This document shows positions 18,360 to 20,324 of a stretch of 64,000 nucleotides of DNA, one piece after another (within the stretch, counting starts at the first letter, position 1; each line of letters begins with the position of its first letter). The DNA comes from Escherichia coli (GTDB lineage Bacteria > Pseudomonadota > Gammaproteobacteria > Enterobacterales > Enterobacteriaceae). The notes under the pieces are model-generated. The model saw nothing but the letters and a program-made list of their open reading frames with translations. It was not told the DNA's origin and made no database searches. Made by a program: the position numbers and the translations under genes. The stretch lies in the NCBI RefSeq assembly GCF_024502345.1, contig NZ_JALDNN010000001.1; one strand, given 5' to 3'.

Positions 18360-20324
18360 GTGAGCATGGATTTAAGCGATTTTTATCAGACATTTTTTGA
18401 TGAAGCGGACGAACTGTTGGCTGACATGGAGCAGCATTTGCTGGTTTTGCAGCCGGAAGCGCCAGATGCCGAACAATTGAATGCCATCTTTCGGGCTGCC
18501 CACTCGATCAAAGGAGGGGCAGGAACTTTTGGCTTCAGCGTTTTGCAGGAAACCACGCATCTGATGGAAAACCTGCTCGATGAAGCCAGACGAGGTGAGA
18601 TGCAACTCAACACCGACATTATCAATCTGTTTTTGGAAACGAAGGACATCATGCAAGAACAGCTCGACGCTTATAAACAGTCGCAAGAGCCGGATGCCGC
18701 CAGCTTCGATTATATCTGCCAGGCCTTGCGTCAACTGGCATTAGAAGCGAAAGGCGAAACGCCATCCGCAGTGACCCGATTAAGTGTGGTTGCCAAAAGT
18801 GAACCGCAAGATGAGCAGAGTCGCAGTCAGTCGCCGCGACGAATTATCCTTTCGCGCCTGAAGGCCGGGGAAGTCGACCTGCTGGAAGAAGAACTGGGAC
18901 ATCTGACAACGTTAACTGACGTGGTGAAAGGGGCGGATTCGCTCTCGGCAATATTACCGGGCGACATCGCCGAAGATGACATCACAGCGGTACTCTGTTT
19001 TGTGATTGAAGCCGATCAGATTACCTTTGAAACAGTAGAAGTCTCGCCAAAAATATCCACCCCACCAGTGCTTAAACTGGCAGCCGAACAAGCGCCAACC
19101 GGCCGCGTGGAGCGGGAAAAAACGACGCGCAGCAGTGAATCCACCAGCATCCGTGTAGCGGTAGAAAAGGTTGATCAATTAATTAACCTCGTCGGCGAGC
19201 TGGTTATCACCCAGTCCATGCTTGCCCAGCGTTCCAGCGAACTGGACCCGGTTAATCATGGTGATTTGATAACCAGCATGGGGCAGTTACAACGTAACGC
19301 CCGTGATTTGCAGGAATCAGTGATGTCGATTCGCATGATGCCGATGGAATATGTTTTTAGTCGCTATCCCCGGCTGGTGCGTGATCTGGCGGGAAAACTC
19401 GGCAAGCAGGTAGAACTGACGCTGGTGGGCAGTTCCACTGAGCTCGACAAGAGCCTGATAGAACGCATTATCGACCCGCTGACCCACCTGGTACGCAATA
19501 GCCTCGATCACGGTATTGAACTGCCAGAAAAACGGCTCGCCGCAGGTAAAAACAGCGTCGGAAATTTAATTCTGTCTGCCGAACATCAGGGCGGCAACAT
19601 TTGCATTGAAGTGACCGACGATGGGGCGGGGCTAAACCGTGAGCGAATTCTGGCAAAAGCGGCCTCGCAAGGTTTGACCGTCAGCGAAAACATGAGCGAC
19701 GACGAAGTTGCAATGCTGATATTTGCACCTGGCTTCTCCACGGCGGAGCAGGTCACCGACGTATCCGGGCGCGGCGTCGGCATGGACGTCGTTAAACGTA
19801 ATATCCAGGAGATGGGCGGTCATGTCGAAATCCAGTCGAAGCAGGGTACTGGCACTACGATCCGCATTTTACTGCCGCTGACGTTGGCCATCCTCGACGG
19901 CATGTCCGTACGCGTTGCGGATGAAGTTTTCATTCTGCCGCTGAATGCTGTCATGGAATCACTGCAACCCCGTGAAGCCGATCTGCATCCACTGGCCGGC
20001 GGCGAGCGGGTGCTGGAAGTGCGGGGTGAATATCTGCCCATCGTCGAACTGTGGAAAGTGTTCAACGTCGCGGGCGCGAAAACCGAAGCTACCCAGGGAA
20101 TTGTGGTGATCTTACAAAGTGGCGGTCGCCGCTACGCCTTGCTGGTGGATCAATTAATTGGTCAACACCAGGTTGTGGTTAAAAACCTTGAAAGTAACTA
20201 TCGCAAAGTCCCCGGCATTTCTGCTGCGACCATTCTTGGCGACGGCAGCGTGGCACTGATTGTTGATGTCTCCGCCTTGCAGGCGATAAACCGCGAACAA
20301 CGTATGGCGAACACCGCCGCCTGA
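18360..20324 (+). CDS. cheA: Chemotaxis histidine kinase CheA (long form)
   Basis: GTG at 18360 gives 654 aa ([10 protein letters not shown]...); P1 to P5 domains recognisable. Confidence 0.93.
18651..20324 (+). CDS. cheA: CheA short isoform (internal in-frame start at Met98)
   Basis: In-frame ATG at 18651 preceded by ggaaacgaagga; matches the known CheA-S start. Confidence 0.7.

Follow-up and report, generated by a model that had tools for sequence, protein, structure and literature searches.

The DNA analyzed here, a stretch of 64,000 nucleotides that we call the window, belongs to an Escherichia coli chromosome. Of 5426 complete E. coli genomes, 5378 match its segment 18000-19000 at an identity of at least 90% (all but one of them at 95% or more), and the matched genomes annotate it as motB followed by cheA. 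In the matching genomes cheA is flanked by motB and cheW; together with the domains of its product, this identifies the gene as the cheA orthologue of the motA-motB-cheA-cheW operon, and the best-matching genome, NZ_CP025842, has the gene order flhDC-motAB-cheAW-tar-tap-cheRBYZ. The RefSeq cheA coding sequence of this near-identical genome corresponds exactly to the long open reading frame of the window and likewise opens with GTG. Within the encoded long protein, CheA-L, Pfam domains are detected as Hpt (residues 8-100), the CheY-binding domain (161-223), the dimerization domain H-kinase_dim (261-324), HATPase_c (372-508) and CheW (514-640). The numbering of the N-terminal 167 residues agrees residue-for-residue with that of the E. 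coli CheA chains in the PDB entries 6s1k, 2lp4 and 8c5v and also aligns with that of the Salmonella P1 structure 1i5n, and the phospho-accepting histidine, His48, sits in the motif AAHSIKGG. The features of the locus are collected in Table 1, in which start(L) and start(S) denote the initiation codons of the long and the short CheA protein.

Table 1. Features of the cheA locus and the cheZ gene, in positions of the window
Feature	Position	Strand	Description
motB ORF	17429-18355		stop codon TGA at 18353-18355, followed by the spacer CAGC at 18356-18359
SD GAGGTGA of start(L)	18349-18355	+	overlaps the motB stop codon TGA
start(L), GTG	18360-18362	+	initiation codon of CheA-L, 654 aa; RefSeq CDS start in NZ_CP025842 and K-12
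cheA (CheA-L)	18360-20324	+	654 codons, stop codon at 20322-20324; domains P1 (Hpt) to P5 (CheW-like)
start(S) initiation region	18621-18662	+	codons 88-101; ATCAATCTGTTTTTGGAAACGAAGGACATC ATG CAAGAACAG; A/U-rich, predicted unstructured, synonymously constrained
SD-like AAGGA of start(S)	18642-18646	+	made by the Lys95 codon AAG
start(S), ATG	18651-18653	+	codon 98, in frame; CheA-S, 557 aa, 18651-20324
cheZ	26647-27291	+	Pfam CheZ, E = 6e-77; annotated as cheZ in the collinear reference; phosphatase partner of CheA-S

Two plasmid records of E. coli also contain the motB-cheA junction and the 30-mer around start(S), so that rare strains of this species carry part of the operon on a plasmid. 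The flhD ORF of the window (15478-15837) is intact, and the annotation of the reference strain 720632, which is otherwise 99.9% identical, gives it as frameshifted. The window also lacks the IS1 element that splits yebB in that strain, and the alignment breaks at this point (about 47028-47037). Positions 78-2404, upstream of yecA, hold an accessory island of two genes, one of which encodes a 346-residue PD-(D/E)XK nuclease (PDDEXK_4) and the other a protein of 393 residues combining an N-terminal CxxC...CxxC motif with a C-terminal Mrr_cat restriction-endonuclease domain. The same site in the closest complete genome, NZ_CP025842, is occupied by TIR-domain genes and an IS1 element, and the Mrr-like gene is present there in truncated form only; the site looks like a variable defence-island hotspot.

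The K-12 MG1655 RefSeq record (NC_000913.3, b1888) annotates two coding sequences for cheA, one of 1965 nt (654 aa plus stop) and one of 1674 nt (557 aa plus stop), whose starts lie 291 nt (97 codons) apart, and the in-frame ATG at 18651 of the window coincides with the start of the second. The gene, the species, the GTG, the ATG at codon 98 and the product lengths are the same in both strains. The calculated masses of the two products are about 71 and 61 kDa. The two cheA genes differ at 15 nucleotides and three amino acids (I5L, N259S and K484E). Over the 30 nt that precede start(L) and from -30 to +12 around start(S) the two sequences are base-for-base identical, and I5L, 13 nt into the long ORF, is the sole difference in either initiation region. 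The preliminary description of this locus, made from the letters of the DNA, had proposed that the P1 domain is without its first 97 residues in the shorter product, and both the position of the ATG at codon 98 and the 557-residue K-12 coding sequence agree with this. Among the E. coli genomes the core 30-mer of the internal site (18632-18661) is matched at an identity of at least 99% in 5377, and the 30-mer of start(L) is matched in 5347.

The start of CheA-L is embedded in the junction with motB. The core of its Shine-Dalgarno (SD) sequence, GAGGT (18349-18353), ends 6 nt before the GTG, and its predicted pairing with the anti-SD amounts to -7.2 kcal/mol. It shares one base, the first of TGA, with the motB stop codon, and the extended GAGGTGA contains all three. 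The placement of a GTG start 5 nt past the motB stop, as first described, holds in the sense that the first base of the GTG is the fifth after the stop codon, with four nucleotides between the two codons, and the frame that it opens runs uninterrupted for 654 codons. A GTG at this position, at a fixed spacing from GAGGTGA, is found in 75 of 81 related loci. Because the motB stop codon lies inside the SD sequence, we infer that initiation at start(L) is coupled to termination on motB, and the arrangement, being conserved in most Enterobacterales loci, suggests translational coupling of motB and cheA. The local accessibility of the GTG lies at the 56th percentile in a calculation that is weakly informative; this modest value probably reflects a site that is opened by the coupling itself.

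The internal start presents a different picture. Its SD-like element, AAGGA, ends 4 nt before the ATG and has an anti-SD duplex energy of -5.4 kcal/mol, and the preliminary description was right that the ATG is in frame and has a purine-rich SD of its own in E. coli. The local accessibility of the site (-17 to +7) is at the 86th percentile of the same weakly informative calculation, as against the 52nd for the in-frame ATG at Met81. No consensus RNA structure was predicted around start(S) (alifold energy of -0.2 kcal/mol), and the predicted fold of the E. coli sequence is less stable than those of its shuffles (MFE z = +1.0). After these two comparisons a structured regulatory element at start(S) was rejected in favor of an unstructured initiation region.

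An in-frame ATG with an SD-like motif is in itself not distinctive, as the pattern is common by chance. In a set of 42 large ORFs from the window there are 421 internal in-frame ATGs. For 56 of them (13%) the SD-like match equals or exceeds that of start(S), and 25 of the ORFs contain at least one such ATG. Within cheA itself, the ATG of codon 98 is only ninth by SD energy among 51 in-frame ATG, GTG and TTG codons. SD strength was consequently rejected, for want of specificity, as a discriminator of internal starts, and the sequence pattern alone would not have favored Met98 over Met81. The choice of 18651 in the preliminary description, whose basis was declared as mixed, reflects prior knowledge of cheA, since the bare pattern is so common by chance.

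The signal at start(S) that does exceed chance is the constraint on synonymous sites across species. We compared 80 Enterobacterales cheA loci with 62-96% protein identity, which were recovered by a scan of GTDB representative genomes seeded with six peptides. One of these peptides was ETKDIMQE (residues 93-100), and the presence of ATG at codon 98 in all 80 species is therefore partly a matter of ascertainment; synonymous positions are unaffected by it. In the codon alignment, cheA was divided into 459 windows of nine codons, and synonymous-codon entropy is lowest in those that immediately precede Met98; the window of codons 89-97 has 0.47 bits, compared with an average of 1.24 for the gene. 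They remain the lowest once each codon is corrected for the entropy typical of its amino acid, and only 3 of 2000 column permutations reach the minimum. The second most constrained region of the gene comprises codons 1-9, at start(L). The element at the internal start spans codons 88-101, about -30 to +12 around the ATG or some 42 nt, which is the size of an initiation-complex footprint. Third-position conservation is 0.79-1.00 at 13 of these 14 codons, the exception being Thr94 (0.51), whereas most of the flanking codons have about 0.35-0.7 and a small number of them reach 0.9. Codons 91-94 form the conserved stretch TTTTTGGAAAC. Judging from the alignment, purifying selection on synonymous sites keeps the internal initiation region beyond the needs of the protein sequence, and both initiation sites show selection at the level of the RNA.

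The conserved element and the SD-like motif of E. coli are distinct in their phyletic distribution. The Met98 ATG and the flanking TTTTTGGAAACNAAAGATATTATGCAG are conserved in the Enterobacterales loci that we compared, but most of the species have AAA at Lys95 and hence lack AAGGA; the conserved core before their ATG is TTTTTGGAAACNAAAGATATT, which has no canonical SD and at best a weak SD-like match of -3.3 kcal/mol. AAG at Lys95 is restricted to 4 of the 80 species, namely E. coli, Cedecea neteri, Izhakiella australiensis and an Erwinia MAG, with AAA in the remaining 76. Thus, the SD noted in the preliminary description is present in E. coli but is not a conserved determinant of the site. 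Within E. coli the AAG codon (18642-18644) is nearly invariant: of the 5378 genomes with this locus, 5377 have it, and this codon may represent a lineage-specific strengthening of CheA-S initiation.

Taken at face value, the frequency of comparable motifs in the window and the ninth rank of this codon within cheA would allow the ATG at 18651 to be a mere internal methionine codon with a fortuitous SD-like neighbor, the short CheA protein then being a product of proteolysis. We regard this as extremely improbable: in K-12, whose start(S) region is identical, the short protein is abolished by the M98L substitution according to the literature, published reporter constructs make it from the endogenous ribosome-binding site, the short coding sequence is annotated in the reference genome, and protein function alone offers no explanation for the synonymous constraint near codon 98, which is the strongest in cheA. 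A different objection concerns the strength of the site, as the SD of start(S) is moderate and near its ATG, and a stronger motif precedes Met81 (ATG 18600, within the segment 18592-18602). There, GAGGTGAG gives an anti-SD duplex of -7.2 kcal/mol, and the codon is ATG in 76 of 80 species, so that Met81 could be conceived of as a further or alternative internal start. Yet the window of codons 73-81 upstream of it ranks 455 of 459 and is among the least constrained at synonymous sites in cheA, its SD-like energy ranges from -0.5 to -9.4 kcal/mol between species, its predicted accessibility is average, and the literature describes two CheA products rather than three. Initiation at Met81 thus appears very unlikely, and Met81 is probably not a conserved start because the synonymous sites upstream of it are unconstrained across species.

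The exact position of start(L) can be questioned in a comparable manner. The long form might begin at the ATG of codon 3 (Met3, 18366), two codons past the GTG, as ATG is the commoner start codon and a start at this position is inescapable in Photorhabdus and Xenorhabdus, where the long form must begin at the codon-3 ATG because GTA replaces the GTG. In the cheA loci of these two genera (L076-L081, around position 1501) the SD sequence AAGGTGAC is placed to suit the ATG two codons on. For E. coli a codon-3 start is disfavored by both spacing and conservation and has very little probability: GAGGT lies 12 nt from this ATG as opposed to 6 nt from the GTG, the GTG and its constant distance from the SD are retained in the great majority of loci, and the numbering of the 654-residue protein (His48, Met98) is that used by RefSeq and by the PDB entries for E. 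coli CheA. We accordingly favor, with a probability of about 0.97, the interpretation of the locus as E. coli cheA with tandem in-frame starts that make CheA-L and CheA-S.

The two starts of cheA have been a textbook case since 1980, and two CheA species were detected decades ago. The tandem starts of CheA-L and CheA-S were reportedly described by Smith and Parkinson (1980) and by Kofoid and Parkinson (1991), and McNamara and Wolfe (1997) are said to have found co-expression of the two forms in other Enterobacteriaceae. In published work, CheA-S is initiated at the ATG of codon 98, and residues 1-97, among them the phosphorylation site His48, are missing from it; in reporter constructs it is made from the endogenous ribosome-binding site. 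The cheA(M98L) substitution eliminates CheA-S, and CheZ-GFP is then without polar localization. CheA-S recruits the phosphatase CheZ to the receptor arrays and is not essential for chemotaxis. PMC1447658 describes it as a translational variant, produced from an in-frame start, which binds CheZ and activates it, and reports that the ratio of CheA-S to CheA-L moves from about 1:4 to 1:1 as the cells grow. The cheA(L)/cheA(S) pair is a standard example of bacterial N-terminal proteoforms (PMC11005335, PMC12350097), and in the retapamulin/Ribo-RET literature the matches to the internal start of cheA cite CheA-S merely as a known example. The existence of two CheA polypeptides in vivo and the loss of the short one on mutation of codon 98 are thus established for K-12 in the literature, and would be expected to hold here as well. 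By virtue of its identity to K-12, the strain from which the window derives probably expresses both forms. The observation of a dual start is real and was correctly interpreted in the preliminary description; it is also already known and annotated.

These observations can be combined into a simple model for the locus. Ribosomes would initiate at the GTG at 18360, probably in a manner coupled to the translation of motB, given the overlap of the SD sequence with the motB stop codon, and would produce the 654-residue CheA-L, an autokinase phosphorylated at His48. Independent initiation within the same frame at the ATG at 18651, in an unstructured A/U-rich region with the modest SD AAGGA, would produce the 557-residue CheA-S, which is without residues 1-97 and hence His48. 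CheA-S does not autophosphorylate and is incompetent as a kinase on its own. It dimerizes via the shared P3 domain, joins the receptor arrays and binds CheZ via the remnant of P1, bringing CheZ to the arrays and raising its activity. The constrained 42 nt may act simply as a landing or standby site for the ribosome. It is conceivable, although we consider it unlikely, that the element is more than a passive ribosome-binding site, in that ribosomal protein S1, an sRNA or another protein might bind to it and adjust the ratio of CheA-S to CheA-L, with a higher output of CheA-S in E. coli than in other enterics.

Comparable arrangements are known from infB, which encodes IF2 alpha and beta, and from the cyanobacterial CcmM, where one ORF likewise gives rise to two proteins by means of an internal ribosome-binding site and start (PMC11005335, PMC12350097). 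As with CheA-S, their short forms are without the N-terminal domain and have a different role; however, the proteins and their functions are other than those of cheA, and the mechanism is analogous rather than homologous.

As CheA-L and CheA-S are the classic bacterial case of in-frame internal initiation, the dual start carries little weight as a discovery. If the element at start(S) is indeed more than a passive site, it might tune the ratio of CheA-S to CheA-L, which is reported to shift with growth. In addition, the profile of synonymous constraint across orthologues picks out both true initiation sites of cheA, and the same approach could be used generally to screen candidate internal starts in genes that have received less study.
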